Of a DNA stretch of 64,000 nucleotides, positions 36,930 through 60,610 are shown one piece after another. Numbering within the stretch: position 1 is the stretch's first letter; every line of letters begins with the position of its first letter. The notes under the pieces are model-generated. The model saw only the letters and a list, made by a program, of their open reading frames with translations, made no database searches and was not told where the DNA came from. A program made the translations under genes and the position numbers. The DNA comes from Methanothermococcus sp. Ax23. GTDB taxonomy: Archaea > AGJL01 > Methanococci > Methanococcales > Methanococcaceae. The DNA lies in assembly GCF_049075655.1 (NCBI RefSeq), contig NZ_CP157522.1, positions 1,088,001 to 1,152,000 of the forward strand, read 5' to 3'.

Positions 36930-37010
36930 ATTTATTGAATTTTAAATTATAAATTATTAAACTTATTTTTTTACGATAAACCGCCGAGAAAGCCAACGAT
37001 TTTAATCGTT

Positions 37011-37047
37011 ATACAAAACATAGTTTTGTAAAATCTCTTACGAGATT
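37011..37047 (+). repeat. 37-nt double-hairpin insert within the IS left-end hairpin
   Basis: tacaaaac-ata-gttttgta + aatctc-ttac-gagatt splits ccaacgattttaatcgtt|gg; present in all full copies. Confidence 0.7.
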
Positions 37048-37373
37048 GGATGAGAGGCGCACATCATTTTTTTTATATACTCCACTACATAATATATGAG
37101 TGTAATTAGAATAATAGCATATATATAAATTTGGTGAATTCCATGCAAGTAACCAGAGTGCTGACAATAAACCTAACCAGAAGTTTAAATAATGAACAAT
37201 TAATAATCATAAACCATTTAACCTATTCAGCATCAAAACTCTGGAATACATCCAACTACGAAGTAATACAGCGAAACATTAAACCAAATAAAATAGATGT
37301 TCAAATGAAGAACAACTTCTGGTTTAAAAACCTGCACTCACAGTCAGCACAGGCAGTATGTCAAAAACTTCAA

Positions 37374-37420
37374 ATTAGACGAAAACCTTCGGTTTTCGTT
37401 GCTCGCTTGCTACGCAAGCG
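37374..37420 (+). repeat. 47-nt double-hairpin cassette (frameshifting) in tnpB
   Basis: attagacgaaaacc-ttc-ggttttcgttgc-tcgcttgc-tac-gcaagcg. Confidence 0.85.
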
Positions 37421-37813
37421 ATTGCATGGCAAAACTACTTCAAACAACACACTAAAAGACCACGATACCAACCAAAAGATGGACACTTTCCCGTAAAATG
37501 GAAGAAGCAAGGTTTCAAAATCATAGGCAATAAGTTAAGATTATCCTTATCTAAACAAACTAAAAACTATCTCAAAGAGAAGCATGGTATCAAGTGCAGG
37601 TATCTATGGGTAGGGTTATCGAAAACTCTACCGCTTGATACCATGCAGGTTAAAGAAGTTGAGATAGTTCCGCAGACCATCTATGGGATAACCTACTACA
37701 TACTTCACTTAATCCATAAGAAACCAGTAATTCAAGAACCTATCAAAGAAGGTAATATATTAAGTATTGATTTAGGAATTAAGAATTTAGCAACAGCAAT
37801 AACAAACACAGGT

Positions 37814-37861
37814 ATCAGGCGAAAACCTTCGGTTTTCGCTACTCACCAACATCAGTTGGTG
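37814..37861 (+). repeat. 48-nt double-hairpin cassette (in frame) in tnpB
   Basis: atcaggcgaaaacc-ttc-ggttttcgctac-tcaccaac-atca-gttggtg; removal gives TNTG-KAVIYDG. Confidence 0.8.
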
Positions 37862-38550
37862 AAAGCAGTAATCTACGATGGAAGAAGGTTAATTTCTAAA
37901 TTCCGATGGTTTGCTAAAACAAAGGGGAAAATACAGTCTGCACTAACAAAACAGGAGTTAAAGAATAACAAAAGATTATCACACTTAACAGTAAAGGAGA
38001 AAAACTACACTAAGGATTATCTTCATAAGGTCAGTAAGATGATTGTTGATTTTGCAGTAGATAATAAAGTTTCAAGGATTGTAATCGGCGAGTTAAACAA
38101 AGGTATTTCAAATATTAATATTGGTAGAAAGAACAACGAGAAAATACACAAGATACCTTTTGGTAGGTTAGTAAGTATGATACAGTATAAAGCAGAGGAA
38201 AGGGGATTAACAGTAGAACAGGTTAATGAATCTTATACTTCTCAAACTTGTAGTAATTGTGGTGTGGTTAAAAAGAGTAATAGGAAGTATAGGGGTTTGT
38301 ATGTGTGTAGTGAGTGTGGTATGGTTTTGAATGCTGATATTAACGGGGCTTTGAATATTTTAAAAAAAGTATTTTCATGTAGCGTAGCCCTGAACCCGTT
38401 AATGGGTAGGGGTAGTGGGCTTGGCAACCCATGTAGGGTTAGACCCTGCTAAAGAACCCCACGATTTTAATCGTGGGAGTATGTCAGGTTATTAAAAATT
38501 TAAATAAAAATTTAGATAATTTATAACATGCTGAATTATCGGTGAAAAAA

Positions 38551-43536: not shown

Positions 43537-43822
43537 TTTTATGAATTTGGAAAAAACTATTAAGATAGGAGATGCACTGTCTAACCCTGTAAGAATTAAA
43601 ATAATTCATCTTTTGAATAAAAAACCCATGAACATTTATGAATTGGCAAAAACACTAAATCTATCAAGACCGGTTATATACACCCATTTAAAAAAATTGG
43701 AAGAAGCTGATTTAGTGGAAAGTGATTTAATATTGGATGATGCAAGGGCTAAGAGAATATACAAATCAAAGGAATTTAAATTTTGCATAGACAATGATAA
43801 AATAGATGAATTTTTTGAGTGA
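43529..43822 (+). CDS. ArsR-family transcriptional regulator
   Basis: ALSNPVRIKII...ELAKTLNLSRPVIYTHLKKLEEADLV. Confidence 0.88.
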   Translation: MSDFMNLEKTIKIGDALSNPVRIKIIHLLNKKPMNIYELAKTLNLSRPVIYTHLKKLEEADLVESDLILDDARAKRIYKSKEFKFCIDNDKIDEFFE

Positions 43823-44540
43823 TATTATGGATAAACTACAAACTGTAAGAAAAATAGTCCAGTCGGCATTTTTTATAAAATTTGTAATCTTATCAGCCGT
43901 TCTTTCAAGCTTCTTCTGCCTGTGCATTTTTGGATATATTGAGCAATTCATATTGATGGGGAGTATTTATTTCGTTCCCGTTGTGGTTGTAATATCCTTG
44001 CTCACAATAATTTTTGGAAGAGTATTTTGCGGTTGGATGTGTCCATTGGGTTTTATTTTTGATTTAACATATAAGTTAAGAGTTAAGTTATCAGGGTTAA
44101 AAAAACTTCCAGAAGTTCCAAAAAACATCCACAATAAATTAAAATACTTAAAATATGTTATGTTGGTGTTATTCATTATATTAACATACCATTTTACAAC
44201 ATACGCCTATTGTTCAGTATGTCCTATCGGAGCTCTCACAAACTTATCTGGAACTCTAATTTCATTTGCCATTCTCGTCGGATTTATAGTATTGGGGTTC
44301 ATATATCCCATGGCATTTTGCAGATATTTCTGTCCAATAGGGGCATTACTTGGGCTACTTTCTATAAAACCCATATTTAAATTGAAATTAAATGATAAAT
44401 GTGTAAAATGTAGAATGTGCGAAAGAAAATGTCCAATGCAGATAGAGCTTACTGAAAAAATAGAACAGCATGAATGTATAAGATGCTTTGAATGTATAAG
44501 TTCATGTAGGAAAAAAGGAGTTGATTTTACCTTTAACTGA
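43806..44540 (+). CDS. Membrane 4Fe-4S protein (NapH/MauN-like)
   Basis: GRVFCGWMCPLG, CSVCPIG, FCRYFCPIG, two CxxCxxCxxxC; stop codon supplied by MITE end. Confidence 0.85.
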   Translation: MNFLSDIMDKLQTVRKIVQSAFFIKFVILSAVLSSFFCLCIFGYIEQFILMGSIYFVPVVVVISLLTIIFGRVFCGWMCPLGFIFDLTYKLRVKLSGLKKLPEVPKNIHNKLKYLKYVMLVLFIILTYHFTTYAYCSVCPIGALTNLSGTLISFAILVGFIVLGFIYPMAFCRYFCPIGALLGLLSIKPIFKLKLNDKCVKCRMCERKCPMQIELTEKIEQHECIRCFECISSCRKKGVDFTFN

Positions 44541-44908
44541 CCTACTCCAACGAGTGAACTCGTTGGGTTCTCGCTTACGGTAGTAAGCGAGCAACGAAAT
44601 CACGAAGTGATTTCGTCTAATTTTAGTAGGGTTTAACCCTACACGGGTGGCCAAGCCCACTACCCCTACCCATTAATGGGTTCAGGGCTACGCTATGCAC
44701 TTCCAACCACTACCAGCGGTAGAGTTTTCACTAACCCCACCCATAGATACTTGGACTGGTAGCGTTACTTACTACTAATCTTCATATATTTATATTTTAC
44801 TACTTACTAGCCGATATAATGTCCGCCTCTCATCCAATCTCGTAAGAGATTTTACAAAACTATGTTTTGTATAACGACTGAAGTCGTTGGCTTTCCCGGC
44901 GGTTTATC
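44537..44908 (-). mobile_element. Non-autonomous IS605-derived element (MITE/PATE) copy A, 372 bp
   Basis: Same TTTAC|GATAAACC left end and TCAG right end as the tnpB element; no ORF. Confidence 0.92.
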
Positions 44909-44989
44909 GTAAATCTTAATATTCATTATTTTACTTATTTTATTTTTTATTTATTAACCTTTGTATATCTTTTTCTTGTTATATTTTTA

Positions 44990-46626: not shown

Positions 46627-47160
46627 TCTACAAAAAAATCCTTTGAAGTATCTGAGCTCAGAAAAGCATGTGAAAAATACAATGTAAAGCATCTTTCATT
46701 TGAAAACGATGAAGTTATAAAAACAAAAATACTAAATAGTGAAATAACACTTCCAAAAACCGTTGTAGATAGTGATTTGATAATAAATCTCCCAAAATTA
46801 AAAACCCACATACTTATGAAATACACTGGGGCAGTTAAAAACCTATATGGATGTATTCCCGGTGGATTGAAGCCAAAACTTCATGGTGTCTATCCAAAGG
46901 AAAATGATTTTGCAAAGTTATTGGTAGAGCTCCACAACACCATAATAAAAGATAAAGAAACAATTACCATAATGGATGGAATCTATGGGATGGAAGGAAA
47001 TGGACCAAGCAATGGAAAACCTATAAATTCAAAAATAGTAATTGCCTCAAAAAGTTCTGTTGCTGTTGATTTATTTGCATCCTATTACATAGGATACAAT
47101 CCCAACGATATTTTAACATATAGGTTTTTAGATGATGGTGTTGAGTATGAACTCATACAT

Positions 47161-47536
47161 CTGACCTACTCCAACGAGTGAACTCGTTGGGTTCTCGCTT
47201 ACGGTAGTAAGCGAGCAACGAAATCACGAAGTGATTTCGTCTAATTTTAGTAGGGTTTAACCCTACACGGGTGGCCAAGCCCACTACCCCTATCTCCGTT
47301 TAGGAGATTCAGGGCTACCTTTTGAATTTCCAAACACTACCAGCGGTAGAGTTTTCGATAACCCTACCCATAGATACTTGGACTGGTAGCGTTACTTACT
47401 ACTAATCTTCACATATTTATATTTTACTACTTACTAGCCGATATAATGTCCCGCCTCTCATCCAATCTCATAAGAGATTTTACAAAACTATGTTTTGTAT
47501 AACGATTAAAATCGTTGGCTTTCTCGGCGGTTTATC
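47161..47536 (-). mobile_element. IS605-derived MITE copy B, 376 bp
   Basis: Nearly identical to copy C (one difference seen); empty site restores ELIH-VNNNK in frame. Confidence 0.93.
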
Positions 47537-47570: not shown

Positions 47571-47599
47571 TACGATTTCCTTCGCTTCGCTCGGAAATG
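47571..47599 (-). repeat. GAGCGAAGCGA-loop hairpin (REP-like)
   Basis: Minus strand atttcc-gagcgaagcgaa-ggaaat; related to the cofG insert. Confidence 0.5.
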
Positions 47600-47890
47600 G
47601 ATTTAAACAATATCAATAGGATGAAATTTAAAAAGCCAGATACATTTTATTTAATCTCCATATTTCCTCCAAAGATTGTAAAGCTGATATTTTCAATCAT
47701 GGTTCAGAAACCGAAAATAAATAAGAGAAAATGTAGGAAATGTAAAATCTGTGAGTATGTGTGCCCAGTCAATGCTATATCAATAGATAATTTGAAAATA
47801 GATTCAAAAAAATGTATAAATTGCTATTGCTGTCATGAAATGTGCGGATTTGATGCCATCGATTTAAGAAGTAGGTTTTGGGTGAATTAG

Positions 47891-53676: not shown

Positions 53677-53772
53677 GTTGGATTTATTACAAACTTTTTA
53701 TTGCAGTTTTTACATGGTATTTTTGTATTACTACTCCATTTGAGGTTGTGTATTTCCCACATCACTTACTTT

Positions 53773-53857
53773 CTGACCTACTCCAACGGGTGAACTCGTT
53801 GGGTTCTCGCTTACGGTAGTAAGCGAGCAACGAAATCACGAAGTGATTTCGTCTAAT
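53773..53857 (-). mobile_element. Isolated MITE right end (cassette + RE hairpin + TCAG)
   Basis: Matches the last ~85 nt of MITEs A-C; begins exactly at the cassette start. Confidence 0.85.
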
Positions 53858-56753: not shown

Positions 56754-57015
56754 ATAATCACCGAAAAATCTATCATTATAAATCATTACAAATTAATAGA
56801 TATTCTAAAAAAAGTTATATATAAATCTTTTGAATGAGGCGATATCATAAAGCTTAAAATAAGCTATTAAAGATTAATTAAAGATATATTTCTCAATTAT
56901 AAACATTTTTTTAAGTATTATAGAATAGAAAAAGATATATATTAGAAATTATAATGGTTAAAAGGAGCCGTAAAATAATTATGGTTGAATAATATAAATA
57001 GTAATACTATAATGT

Positions 57016-57104
57016 GGCGCGGGGTGCTGTGCCTGGTGGCACAGGGCGGACTTCAGATCCGTCAAGTTCGTTTGAACTCGGGGTTCGATTCCCCCCCAGC
57101 GCCG
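57016..57104 (+). tRNA. selC: tRNA-Sec (anticodon UCA at 57053-57055)
   Basis: Long acceptor stem, long D stem ctgtgcc/ggcacag, gcgga-cttcaga-tccgt anticodon arm, long variable arm, 4-bp T stem with GGTTCGATTCC; T-run downstream; no encoded CCA. Confidence 0.96.
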
Positions 57105-57149
57105 TTTTTTATATATGTCTATTTTATTTTCCAGTGTTTGAGGGGAATT

Positions 57150-58103
57150 ATGAAAAAAATATATTCCAAAACTGGTGATTTATCAGATTTTAAAAATGCC
57201 ATTTCTTTTTTGCAAGACTTTACTGGATTTATAAAAATAGATAATGGAATGTTATTTTATATTGATTCAAAACTAACGTTCTCAATCTGGGGTGGAAAGA
57301 AATCTGACTTAAAAACAATATTGAAAAACCTACCTGATATATTTTCAATTGAAATATATAAATGTTCAAATGAAGACATTAAAAAAGTTATAGATAGTGA
57401 ATTAAATAGTAATTCCACACCAACTGCCTCAAAACCTGAGCTCCTAAATGAAATATATGGGTCAATATCATCTAATGTAAAACCAGACGTAAATGCTGAA
57501 AATGGCATTTCAATAAACCTATATACAAATATATATAATTATGTGGGAATAGGATTATACGAAGTAATTTTAATACCGAAAAGATACAAATCCGATAAAG
57601 GAACATTGATATTCAAAAACTGTGATGAACTATTTGCCATATATGAGTCGAAAAATAAAACACTTGAAGGAAAAAAAGCACTTGGAAAAATAAAAACTGT
57701 GTTTGCAGTTAGTGAAATTACCGCATTTATTAAGAAAATACCCCTTAACACATTTAATAGTTATGTGGAAAAATACTCCAATGCTCTTTTAAAAACTCAA
57801 GTATCATTTGAGGAATTAATTAAAAAAATAAAAGAAAAAGGAACTAAAATAATTAAAAATGATTCATTGGTAAATGTTTTAACAGAAAAACCCTCATTAA
57901 TAGAAATCGATAAAAATATGTATATTGTATCCAACGAAAAAAAACCTGTTTATGCATTTTTTGAAGACTATGATGGAGATAAAGCATACAGATATATTAA
58001 AAATTTCTGCATTTTTAACGATATCGAAATTAAAATATACCCTCTTGATAACGATGAGTTTAAGTTGTTCAAAGAATTTCAAGAAAATAGAATAAAACAG
58101 TAG
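57150..58103 (+). CDS. DUF2226-like conserved Methanococcales protein
   Basis: ATG 57150 after GAGGGG RBS; FTGFIKI, YDGDKAYR; the track's N-terminal extension overlaps tRNA-Sec and is spurious. Confidence 0.65.
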   Translation: MKKIYSKTGDLSDFKNAISFLQDFTGFIKIDNGMLFYIDSKLTFSIWGGKKSDLKTILKNLPDIFSIEIYKCSNEDIKKVIDSELNSNSTPTASKPELLNEIYGSISSNVKPDVNAENGISINLYTNIYNYVGIGLYEVILIPKRYKSDKGTLIFKNCDELFAIYESKNKTLEGKKALGKIKTVFAVSEITAFIKKIPLNTFNSYVEKYSNALLKTQVSFEELIKKIKEKGTKIIKNDSLVNVLTEKPSLIEIDKNMYIVSNEKKPVYAFFEDYDGDKAYRYIKNFCIFNDIEIKIYPLDNDEFKLFKEFQENRIKQ

Positions 58104-58160
58104 AACGATAAATAAAACGCAATATAAGCAGTAGTAAATAAGTAGTATGTAATATCTAAT

Positions 58161-58748
58161 TTATTTTGAATCTTTGAATATATTCTTCATATAGTATTTA
58201 CTATATAGAGTTCCCCCCGGATTATGTGCTAAAATTCTATCCTTAACTAAAAATGTTGTTGCAGGGGCTCTTGAATATTTTTGAAATAATATGTCATGTC
58301 CAATACACAGACCTACAATAATGTTTAAATCTGTCTCTTTTTCATTTAAAATTTCAGCCTGAGCTATGGGATTGCACATGGATTCTCTATTGTTGGGATT
58401 TATTTTTGTTAGGTTGAGCTTATCCTTATCAATTCCGCAAACTTTGCAACATACGGAGTATGTTTTAAAATAGTTTGATAAAATCTTATCCAAAGTTTTT
58501 GCTTCATTTTCCAATCCAATACAGAAAACTATTCCAATTTTTTTACATTCCATCAATTTACAAAATTCTATAATCTCTTCCAATCTGTTCTTTTTCATAT
58601 AGTAAGTTCCTTCAATGTATGATGAAACTGTTGCTATTTTTAAATTTTCATCTTTTTTATATTCTTTCATGACCTTTTCGCTAATTTCTTTTTTACAGCA
58701 GTTTTTTCCATCTGCACATAATTTTTTATCGCATACTGCACATTTCAT
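58161..58748 (-). CDS. DUF1847-family metal-binding protein
   Basis: KIGIVFCIGL, VCCKVCG, MCNPIAQA, GLCIGHD, VKDRILAHNP. Confidence 0.85.
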   Translation of the reverse strand: MKCAVCDKKLCADGKNCCKKEISEKVMKEYKKDENLKIATVSSYIEGTYYMKKNRLEEIIEFCKLMECKKIGIVFCIGLENEAKTLDKILSNYFKTYSVCCKVCGIDKDKLNLTKINPNNRESMCNPIAQAEILNEKETDLNIIVGLCIGHDILFQKYSRAPATTFLVKDRILAHNPGGTLYSKYYMKNIFKDSK

Positions 58749-58843
58749 TGTTTTACCTTTCTTTATTATATGTTTGTTTAAATATATTTATACATCCATT
58801 ACTTTGAAAATAAACTTATCAACAATTAAAAACTAGATTTTAC

Positions 58844-59219
58844 GATAAACCGCCGAGAAAGCCAACGATTTTAATCGTTATACAAAACATAGTTTTGTAA
58901 AATCTCTTACGAGATTGGATGAGAGGCGGGACATTATATCGGCTAGTAAGTAGTAAAATATAAATATGTGAAGATTAGTAGTAAGTAACGCTACCAGTCC
59001 AAGTATCTATGGGTAGGGTTATCGAAAACTCTACCGCTGGTAGTGTTTGGAAATTCAAAAGGTAGCCCTGAATCTCCTAAACGGAGATAGGGGTAGTGGG
59101 CTTGGCCACCCGTGTAGGGTTAAACCCTACTAAAATTAGACGAAATCACTTCGTGATTTCGTTGCTCGCTTACTACCGTAAGCGAGAACCCAACGAGTTC
59201 ACTCGTTGGAGTAGGTCAG
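58844..59219 (+). mobile_element. IS605-derived MITE copy C, 376 bp
   Basis: TTTAC|GATAAACC...GGTCAG; intergenic. Confidence 0.93.
58987..59219 (+). ncRNA. Putative omegaRNA-like transcript within the MITE (also in copies A and B)
   Basis: TATAAATA at 58959-58966 about 20 nt upstream; covarying stems shared with tnpB mid-gene and tnpB 3' end. Confidence 0.55.
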
Positions 59220-59296
59220 ATTTATATATTAAAATTATAAGAAATTAAAATAAAAAATAATTAAATGATAATATAAATCAAATCGATTATAATTAA

Positions 59297-60610
59297 TTAT
59301 AATAAATAATCAGGCACAATATCCTTTGAAAGCAAATCTGCATAGGTTTCTTTTTCTCTGATGATAAACACTCCCTTTTCACTTGTTAATATCATTCTTG
59401 GTCTTCCTCTTGCATTGTAGTTATTTGCCATGCTTATACCATAGGCCCCAACATCCAATATGGCAATTATATCATCCACTTCTATTTTTGTGAGCTCCCT
59501 ATCTTTTCCAAATACATCTGAGCTCTCACATAAACCACCTGCAATATTTACAACTTCCTTTTCATTTCCCCTTATGACGCATGGAGTTATTTCGTGGTAT
59601 GATTCATATATTGCTGGTCTCATCATGTCGTTCATACCAGCATCAATCATTACCCATTTTGCAACAGGAGTTTCTTTAATATGATGCACTTTTCCAAGCA
59701 ATACCCCAGCTGTTGCAACTAAACTTCTTCCAGGTTCAAGTATTAAATTTGGGAGCTCGATTTTATCCTTATATTCCATCATTGTGTTTATTATAGCATC
59801 AGCCAAATCCTTTTGAACTGGAATTTCTGTGTTTTTGTCGTATGGAATACCTAATCCACCGCCTAAATTAACATCTTTTATTTCAATTCCTTCTTTTTTC
59901 AATTCAACGACGAAATCCATAACTTTTCTTGTTTCTTCAATGAAGGGCGTAATGTCCGTTAATTGGGAACCTATGTGGCAGTGTATTCCTACAATATTTA
60001 CATTTTCCATTTCTGTTGCCATTTTAATTGCTTTCATTGCAATTCCTGATTCAACATCAAGTCCAAATTTGTTCTTTTTCAATCCTGTTGAAATTTTTGG
60101 ATGTGTCTTTGGATTTACATTTGGATTTATTCTAAATGCAATATTTGCAACTTTTCCCATTTCCTTTGCAGTTTCATTTATCAATATTAATTCGCTTATG
60201 CTATCCACATTAAATGACCTTATATTTGCCTCAATCCCCATTTTTATTTCGTCTTTTGTTTTACAGTTTCCGTTGAATACTATTTTTTCTGATGGAACAT
60301 TTGAAAGCTTTGCAGTGTAGAGCTCCCCTCCACTTACAACATCGGCACCGCATCCTAATTTTGATAGCAATCTTGTAATTGCCAAGTTTGAGTTTGCCTT
60401 GTATGCGTATCCTACAATAAACTCTTTTCCTGTTTTTTCAGTGTATTCCTTAAATGCCTCAATGTATCTTGTAAAGTTTTTAACAATTTGGCTTTCACTC
60501 ATTACATAAAGTGGTGTGCCGTATTCTTTTGCCAGTTCAGTTGCATCATATCCATCTATTTTTAAAACACCATCTTCAACAGTTATCATTTCATTTCCAA
60601 GAAATTTCAT
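59297..60610 (-). CDS. lysA: Diaminopimelate decarboxylase
   Basis: YAYKAN, HCHIGSQ, NLGGG, EPGRS, GLCESSD, GAYG..M..NYN. Confidence 0.96.
   Translation of the reverse strand: MKFLGNEMITVEDGVLKIDGYDATELAKEYGTPLYVMSESQIVKNFTRYIEAFKEYTEKTGKEFIVGYAYKANSNLAITRLLSKLGCGADVVSGGELYTAKLSNVPSEKIVFNGNCKTKDEIKMGIEANIRSFNVDSISELILINETAKEMGKVANIAFRINPNVNPKTHPKISTGLKKNKFGLDVESGIAMKAIKMATEMENVNIVGIHCHIGSQLTDITPFIEETRKVMDFVVELKKEGIEIKDVNLGGGLGIPYDKNTEIPVQKDLADAIINTMMEYKDKIELPNLILEPGRSLVATAGVLLGKVHHIKETPVAKWVMIDAGMNDMMRPAIYESYHEITPCVIRGNEKEVVNIAGGLCESSDVFGKDRELTKIEVDDIIAILDVGAYGISMANNYNARGRPRMILTSEKGVFIIREKETYADLLSKDIVPDYLL

Follow-up and report, generated by a model that had tools for sequence, protein, structure and literature searches.

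The locus considered here raises the question of whether a transposon that has lost its genes can persist as a stand-alone gene for a guide RNA. The window, i.e. the whole stretch of DNA analysed, comprises 64,000 nucleotides from Methanothermococcus sp. Ax23 (contig NZ_CP157522.1, positions 1,088,001 to 1,152,000 of the forward strand), and an earlier note made from its letters placed in it three copies of a non-autonomous IS605 derivative (MITE), built like promoter-driven genes for the omegaRNAs that guide TnpB. All three copies lie where that note put them (copies A, B and C, Table 1), and each part of the layout it described, namely left end, promoter segment, mid-tnpB structure, scaffold, cassette and right end, was located. 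The genome comprises 1.66 Mb with 32% G+C, plus a second contig of 7.7 kb, and carries two McrA genes and a tRNA-Sec gene, which mark it as that of a methanogen.

The concept of a stand-alone guide used in trans is not new and is already in print. Stand-alone omegaRNAs that are mobilised and act in trans were published by Altae-Tran et al. 2021 (as summarised in part of PMC10691335), and the PATEs, described for Haloquadratum (PMC3119063), "often encode omegaRNAs" that need TnpB in trans, in the words of an extract of Meers et al. 2023 (10.1101/2023.03.14.532601). New here are a conserved promoter spacing, a 5' stem-loop that also occurs within the tnpB frame, a nested mobile mini-cassette and a link to the HgcC RNAs. 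Reading the copies as self-promoted stand-alone guide-RNA mini-transposons is well supported by comparative evidence, and unproven at the RNA level. In the archaea, where TnpB biology has been little studied, the family would show in clean natural form how far a transposon can be pared down: to two ends, a promoter and a guide RNA.

Table 1. Features of the element family, in window coordinates.
Feature	Position	Strand	Remarks
Copy A	44537-44908	-	acccattaatgggt hairpin allele; TTAC at 44909-44912; right end adjoins the end of ORF 43806-44540
Copy B	47161-47536	-	99% identical to copy C; contains 21 nt of ORF 46777-47181
Copy C	58844-59219	+	non-autonomous IS200/IS605 element
TTAC 5' flank	58840-58843	+	presumed TnpA target and TnpB TAM
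Left end shared with tnpB-only elements	58844-58928	+	93-100% identical to left ends of full-length copies
Subterminal hairpin of left end	58864-58879	+	
Optional two-hairpin module, 37 nt	58878-58914	+	in 21/27 copies
MITE-specific promoter segment	58929-58988	+	TATA box TATAAATA at 58959-58966, preceded by a BRE-like, purine-rich AGTAAA
5' stem-loop (stem-1)	58987-59047	+	outer helix, 13-nt bulge, inner hairpin (fold; cross-genome covariation)
omegaRNA scaffold from tnpB 3' end	59062-59134	+	swapped hairpin 59065-59094, then two more stems
Double-hairpin cassette, 50 nt	59135-59184	+	separately mobile mini-element; in 18/27 copies
Right end	59185-59219	+	hairpin 59189-59209; terminal TCAG 59216-59219
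Predicted guide	59220-59239	+	flank past the right end; inferred from the build of TnpB omegaRNAs (PMC10691335, in part)
Isolated cassette and right-end fragment	53772-53857	-	99% identical to element positions 300-385
Full-length tnpB-only element	36975-38487	+	tnpB split into 128-aa and 357-aa frames (F1124k) by cassette 37372-37430
Second cassette of the same tnpB element	37815-37865		
Mid-gene stem-loop of tnpB	37581-37668	+	also in tnpB genes of L045, L057, L058, L059, L078 and L079; outer helix 13-14 bp

Identity and ends of the element

Comparison of the element with its own genome by BLAST gives 88 HSPs, and the 27 places with both ends within about 420 nt, aligned with their flanks, form the set of copies referred to below. 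With a covariance model the number of complete cores rises to 28, the additional copy having an interruption of about 1 kb. The elements are 330-410 nt long and the copies 80-100% identical by BLAST. In the 27-copy alignment TTAC precedes and TCAG closes every element, the flanks are mutually unrelated, and subterminal hairpins lie near both ends, with neither terminal inverted repeats nor a target-site duplication. No ORF of at least 80 aa overlaps 58844-59219 in copy C. The identity of the element as a transposon follows from these copies at unique sites, the hairpins, the TTAC and TCAG ends, the absence of an ORF and the ends shared with tnpB and tnpA forms. The view of the copies as non-autonomous IS200/IS605 derivatives is supported; they retain the right end together with the scaffold of the tnpB 3' end.

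The ends are precisely defined. TTAC stands at 36 of the 36 left ends in the genome, and at 51 of 51 left ends with distinct flanks across 67 metagenome contigs; the longer TTTAC of the earlier note holds in its last four letters and not in its first, the preceding base being T in 29 cases, A in six and C in one. The 38 right ends in the genome share the terminus GGAGTA[GT]GTCAG. Copy C, once drawn to 59240, stops as an element at 59219, and the extra ~20 nt are flank, that is, the would-be guide. The element gave no match in the plasmid collection, and the left-end pattern no exact match in the genome contig collection. Four genomes (G007, G002, G008 and G010) have no element where copy B is inserted, these relatives being ~75% identical and the junction unreadable. 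Beside copy B, at window ~47572-47600, lies a short hairpin repeat with perfect matches of 25-32 nt at many places in G010, G003 and G012.

The copies are mosaics of optional and alternative modules. Besides the optional modules listed in Table 1, a 30-nt insert occurs in 4/27 copies, and the right-end hairpin exists in six variants among the 27, with pairing kept in all of them. The insertions have also touched their neighbours: the stop codon of ORF 43806-44540 coincides with terminal bases of copy A (window 44535-44540), and ORF 46777-47181 extends into copy B at 47161-47181, so that in each case the 3' end of a gene was altered, by a stop codon supplied by copy A and by 21 nt that run into copy B.

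A promoter at a conserved distance

The earlier note had placed a short sequence about 20 nt before the first stem, and this is borne out: it is a methanogen-type TATA box, and in copy C, 22 nt separate the 3' edge of TATAAATA from the first paired base of stem-1. Of the two alleles, TATAAATA is carried by 22 copies and CATAAATA by five. For comparison across the order, the covariance model was built from the core only (stem-1 to scaffold), with the promoter and the ends excluded. It recovers complete fused cores in 9/40 genomes, i.e. in eight besides the 28-core genome itself (G000): six in G032, three each in G024 and G029, two each in G017 and G036, and one each in G015, G027 and G039. Of the 19 elements from other genomes 11 were examined, and all 11 carry TTTATATA, with one mismatch or none, its end lying 22-25 nt ahead of the first paired base of stem-1; among random genome positions, 2.5% have the motif at such spacing. 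The sequence of the spacer between TATA box and stem-1 differs among these elements, and the position of the box is kept.

In M. jannaschii the TATA consensus is TWTATATA and its 3' edge lies 23 +/- 2 nt before the start of transcription in 126 of 134 mapped promoters (from part of PMC2699501). Applied to copy C, this spacing puts the predicted start of the RNA at about 58987-58992, at the base of stem-1 and near the start at 58987 proposed earlier. The conserved distance from TATA box to stem predicts the start within a few bases, and the element is therefore easily put to the test.

From three metatranscriptome runs and a probable DNA run, contigs only were mapped on 56900-60400. In X1 the summed contig depth over the element rises through four bins (198, 279, 1448 and 5554, flank 24.5), and the probable DNA run X2 has the same 3' bias (18, 32, 105 and 404, flank 4.8), these depths being one figure per contig to which other strains and the cassette's own copies add. 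Exact 31-mers of the left end and of the cassette have much the same copy number in the genome (~19-21). The tRNA-Sec gene of the region (window 57016-57103, 64.5 bits) is uncovered in these contigs.

The folded RNA and its counterpart in tnpB

Folding of the 261 nt that begin at position 58985 gives -101.6 kcal/mol (z = -7.85), and 0/200 shuffles are as good. Within stem-1, a 43-nt island (58996-59038) is 91-95% identical to a mid-gene stretch that lies inside tnpB reading frames, and the scaffold (59062-59134) is 82-96% identical to tnpB 3' ends. One scaffold hairpin was said earlier to be swapped between copies with its pairing preserved, and the full set agrees: 16 copies have atctcctaaacgg, 10 have acccattaatgggt and one has accctttaaagggt, all of them paired. 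At the 50 predicted pairs, variant cells among the 27 copies keep pairing in 70 cases and break it in two, compared with 24-44 kept and 33-68 broken for slid controls; many of these variants are inherited swaps. Across genomes, 97.4% of cells pair, versus 37-50% with slid partners, in an alignment of 24 matches (21 distinct rows) that is fitted to the model, so that structure is favoured, and whose members are kin and not independent. Both-side changes occur in it at 15/29 pairs, many of them inherited module swaps and not independent events, and 0/500 shuffles reach the score of the alignment. Neutral decay of the stems, which would have spoken against the earlier reading, is not what either comparison gives: the stems are under selection.

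The two-tier stem-loop is also found inside the tnpB reading frames of the same genome and of G024, G033, G037 and G023, with compensatory changes in the outer helix. Among identical residues of the aligned TnpB proteins, the fraction of identical codons is 0.81-0.94 in the stem-loop and 0.92-1.0 in the 3' scaffold, versus mostly 0.5-0.8 elsewhere in tnpB, so synonymous sites are more conserved in the two structured regions, by a modest margin. In the parent gene the stem-loop lies ~740 nt from the scaffold, and in the MITE the outer helix differs in sequence from that of tnpB while its pairing is kept. For stem-1 we favour the role of a 5' module, either in the stability of the RNA or in TnpB binding. 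By eye, no pseudoknot that would join the bulge of stem-1 to the scaffold or the linker is consistent across lineages, and an Rfam search with the element gives no family at gathering score and nothing meaningful with E up to 10. A stem-loop common to the coding sequence of tnpB and to the 5' end of an RNA poses a question about how guide RNAs are made or stabilised.

Parent elements and the missing transposase

Nine tnpB-only elements of ~1.5 kb in the genome share their left end and 3' end with the MITE, the left end and the 3' 164 nt of the latter being 93-100% identical to them. With the 3' end of an intact copy (G000:C1:1302284-1302447), element positions 221-384 share 93% identity. The MITE is pieced together from the left end, the promoter segment, the 43-nt tnpB island, about a dozen following bases, and the final ~75 nt of tnpB, which lead on to the right end. 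A single open tnpB frame is found in two of the nine full-length copies, and the other seven are broken, split by an inserted 47-nt cassette. The intact cognate tnpB that the earlier note expected elsewhere in the genome is present, encoding a TnpB of 404 aa (P0001) with OrfB_IS605 (Pfam) and Cas12f1-like TNB domains, which matches solved TnpB and Cas12f structure chains. P0001 has two CxxC pairs and the motifs SIDLG, IGEL and NADING, which we take to contain the RuvC acidic residues.

The tnpA that was likewise expected is missing: the genome has no Pfam Y1 match, and tblastn with related TnpA recovers only a 23-aa remnant (G000:C1:947365-947430). Y1 matches occur in 6/40 genomes of the same order. 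An intact 144-aa Y1 tnpA frame lies directly upstream of a tnpB of the same clade in G024, G032 and G015, and the left end of the G024 IS is that of the G024 mini-elements. A metagenome contig (L140, 156-692, minus strand) carries a left end of the window type after TTTAC, and behind it a Y1 tnpA and the first part of tnpB; the TnpA is 47% identical to that of G024 (E 1.4e-36), and the right end of this form lies off the contig. This form shares with the MITE the gacattatat that follows the left end, and a TATA box at similar distance. The description of the promoter segment as absent from the tnpB element holds for the tnpB-only copies and fails for the tnpA-tnpB form of L140, which shares its first ~10 nt and TATA box. 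The segment private to the MITE would most simply be the promoter region beside the left end of the autonomous form.

Lacking TnpA in their genome, the copies are probably immobile at present, recording a recent burst or relying on TnpA from outside.

Proposed mode of action and alternatives

Taken together, we prefer to read each copy as a stand-alone, self-promoted omegaRNA gene that is used by TnpB in trans on the empty donor site, and put the probability of this at about 0.62. Each copy would be a gene-less derivative of an IS200/IS605 element (IS608-like, TTAC...TCAG) that still works as a small RNA gene. The BRE and TATA box beside the left end would start transcription at the foot of the 5' stem-loop, and the RNA would extend across the TnpB omegaRNA scaffold, through the right end and on into the adjoining DNA, this flank serving as the guide. 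TnpB from the two intact tnpB-only elements elsewhere would load the MITE RNA in trans and cut the TTAC-adjacent empty site left by TnpA excision, and repair from the sister copy would then restore the element (homing and retention). For the MITE RNA, transcription, TnpB binding and cleavage are steps that we infer. Counted against this account are the cover of the element in the metatranscriptome contigs, whose pattern the probable DNA run repeats, the seven broken tnpB copies of nine and the lack of TnpA, without which excision countered by homing cannot happen in this genome now. What stands of the earlier interpretation is the IS200/IS605 derivation, the promoter, the stems, the intact tnpB and the antisense geometry of copies A and B, and what finds no support is the tnpA and a wider repertoire of guides.

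An alternative that we consider unlikely is that the copies are recent fossils, their promoter and folds inherited from the parent IS, the elements now idle and the conservation due to youth. A genome without TnpA, copies still 80-100% identical and the broken tnpB genes would fit such a history, as would the mean minor-allele frequency in the 27 copies, which is about equal in paired (0.045) and unpaired (0.047) columns. Youth does not readily explain why TATA position and stems are kept across eight other genomes despite differing spacers and stem sequences, why variant cells pair in 70 cases and break in two, or why the outer helix of stem-1 was rebuilt from other bases once a deletion had given rise to the MITE.

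Cognate TnpB is not always present, which bears on the use of the RNA in trans. G017 and G027 (99% complete) carry elements with TATA box and folds, with a best TnpB match just 26-33% identical, and the tnpB of G024 is in two pieces; both observations count against TnpB in trans. The elements of G017 and G027 could favour a small RNA independent of TnpB, such as a regulator recruited by the host, an antisense RNA to the gene at the right end or a decoy for TnpA or TnpB. Copies A and B have the geometry noted earlier, being placed so that their transcripts would enter ORFs 43806-44540 and 46777-47181 antisense from the 3' end, and over-expression of a PATE-derived RNA improved the growth of Halobacterium (according to part of PMC4615843). 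Against this, the insertion sites are mutually unrelated and so offer no common target, the conserved part is exactly the TnpB scaffold and right end, and the orphan elements may be recent; we regard it as a quite improbable explanation.

The preferred reading, in which each guide serves its own donor site, differs from the earlier proposal of a dispersed guide repertoire, by which TnpB would reach sites apart from the donor joints of the elements themselves, for instance in host loci or on invaders. The 38 right-end flanks are all different, as a repertoire would have it, and stand-alone omegaRNAs are said to "provide for targeting additional sites" (PMC10691335). A scan with three mismatches yields noise, and a stricter one over 16 nt was used. 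In the genome, including the 7.7-kb second contig, no second TTAC-adjacent site with 0-1 mismatch in 16 nt was found for any of the 38 flanks; with two mismatches there are just three such sites, all AT-rich and of low complexity. For want of a second genomic match, the guides look to be aimed only at their own empty sites, and a wider repertoire appears very improbable. Just as little can be said for a role at the DNA level only, with hairpins serving TnpA on ssDNA and the TATA box a mobile promoter for neighbours or an AT-rich word arisen by chance: the hairpins at the ends are certainly DNA signals of the TnpA type and TATA-like words are common at 32% G+C, yet TnpA requires the subterminal hairpins alone while the internal stems 1-4 covary, the box keeps its spacing in every element examined, far above background, and the promoter is directed inward, into the element.

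Relation to known systems and to HgcC RNA

IS608 has TTAC at its left end and a TCAx tetranucleotide at its right end. Like IS608 and the IS605 group (Y1 TnpA, peel-and-paste), the element has TTAC at the left, TCAx at the right, subterminal hairpins and no target duplication, and an autonomous tnpA-tnpB form exists; unlike them, this derivative has lost both genes and its host has lost TnpA. With the omegaRNA-bearing PATEs it shares a gene-less build, IS200/IS605 ends, a TnpB scaffold, a guide derived from the flank and an effector in trans. It departs from the PATEs as described in its archaeal BRE/TATA at a conserved distance (the literature searched, much of it in partial form, yielded no statement on their promoters), in the extra 5' stem-loop shared with mid-tnpB, in the nested mini-cassettes and in a host genome without TnpA. 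The sotRNAs of IS1341-type tnpB in Halobacterium are likewise non-coding RNAs over the tnpB 3' end and right end; in contrast to the conserved TATA box found here, no classical BRE-TATA was seen upstream of them (PMC4615843).

The same architecture recurs in HgcC RNA genes. In loci that score above the HgcC gathering score (L167-L171, in G031 and G029), a left end with cassette is followed by a GC-rich box, TTTATATA, the RNA core, a right-end hairpin and GGTCAG, and in 5/7 HgcC loci a perfect TTTATATA stands 23-26 nt before the start of the model. HgcC (Rfam RF00062) was reportedly found in M. jannaschii, in work by Klein and colleagues of 2002, and has been without known function since then. 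The build of its loci, with left end, TATA box, RNA and right end, suggests that HgcC RNAs may be stand-alone transposon guide RNAs. The HgcC RNA core differs from the element in lacking stem-1 and in having another scaffold. Weak matches to the HgcC model are found in the 3' halves of three cassette-less copies, in part of a fourth and at a tnpB 3' end in the window; the element was rejected as a member of the family, the five best matches in the genome scoring 24.5-29.6 bits, below the gathering score of 50.

Expression of a PATE-derived RNA in Halobacterium, and a tetraloop in HgcC that resembles that of the right end, are reported in PMC4615843, beyond which the literature searched contained no joint mention of HgcC and TnpB. 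In M. jannaschii, promoters beside G+C-rich islands bound TBP/TFB, and four such RNAs were seen experimentally (in the excerpt of PMC2602779). In two complete genomes such elements persist, TATA box and folds included, in the absence of a cognate TnpB, which points to a possible role beyond it. One may tentatively go further and see in the 5' stem-loop a second, undescribed RNA module of this TnpB clade, joined straight to the scaffold in the mini-element and preceded there by a promoter, and in the promoter-bearing elements and HgcC a set of RNA genes that outlast or do not need TnpB, an extension that we consider doubtful.

A nested mobile cassette

The double-hairpin cassette that precedes the right end is absent from 9/27 copies, with clean junctions, and occurs as a unit of 47-50 nt at 49 places in the genome, among them about 15 solo sites, the MITEs and tnpB ORFs. 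Starting with ATTAG-ACGAAA, it has a conserved first hairpin and a second one that covaries. The insertions sit in hairpin loops or between stems, and in other genomes the cassette is found in the apical loop of stem-1, in the loop of stem-2, in left ends and once in frame in tnpB. In size it may rank with the smallest mobile elements. Its presence in hairpin loops, and the splitting of seven of the nine tnpB copies by it, likewise raise a question about how guide RNAs are made or stabilised. One of the G017 copies (L032/L050) has in its left end a further insertion of ~150 nt, bounded by inverted repeats, which may be a nested MITE.
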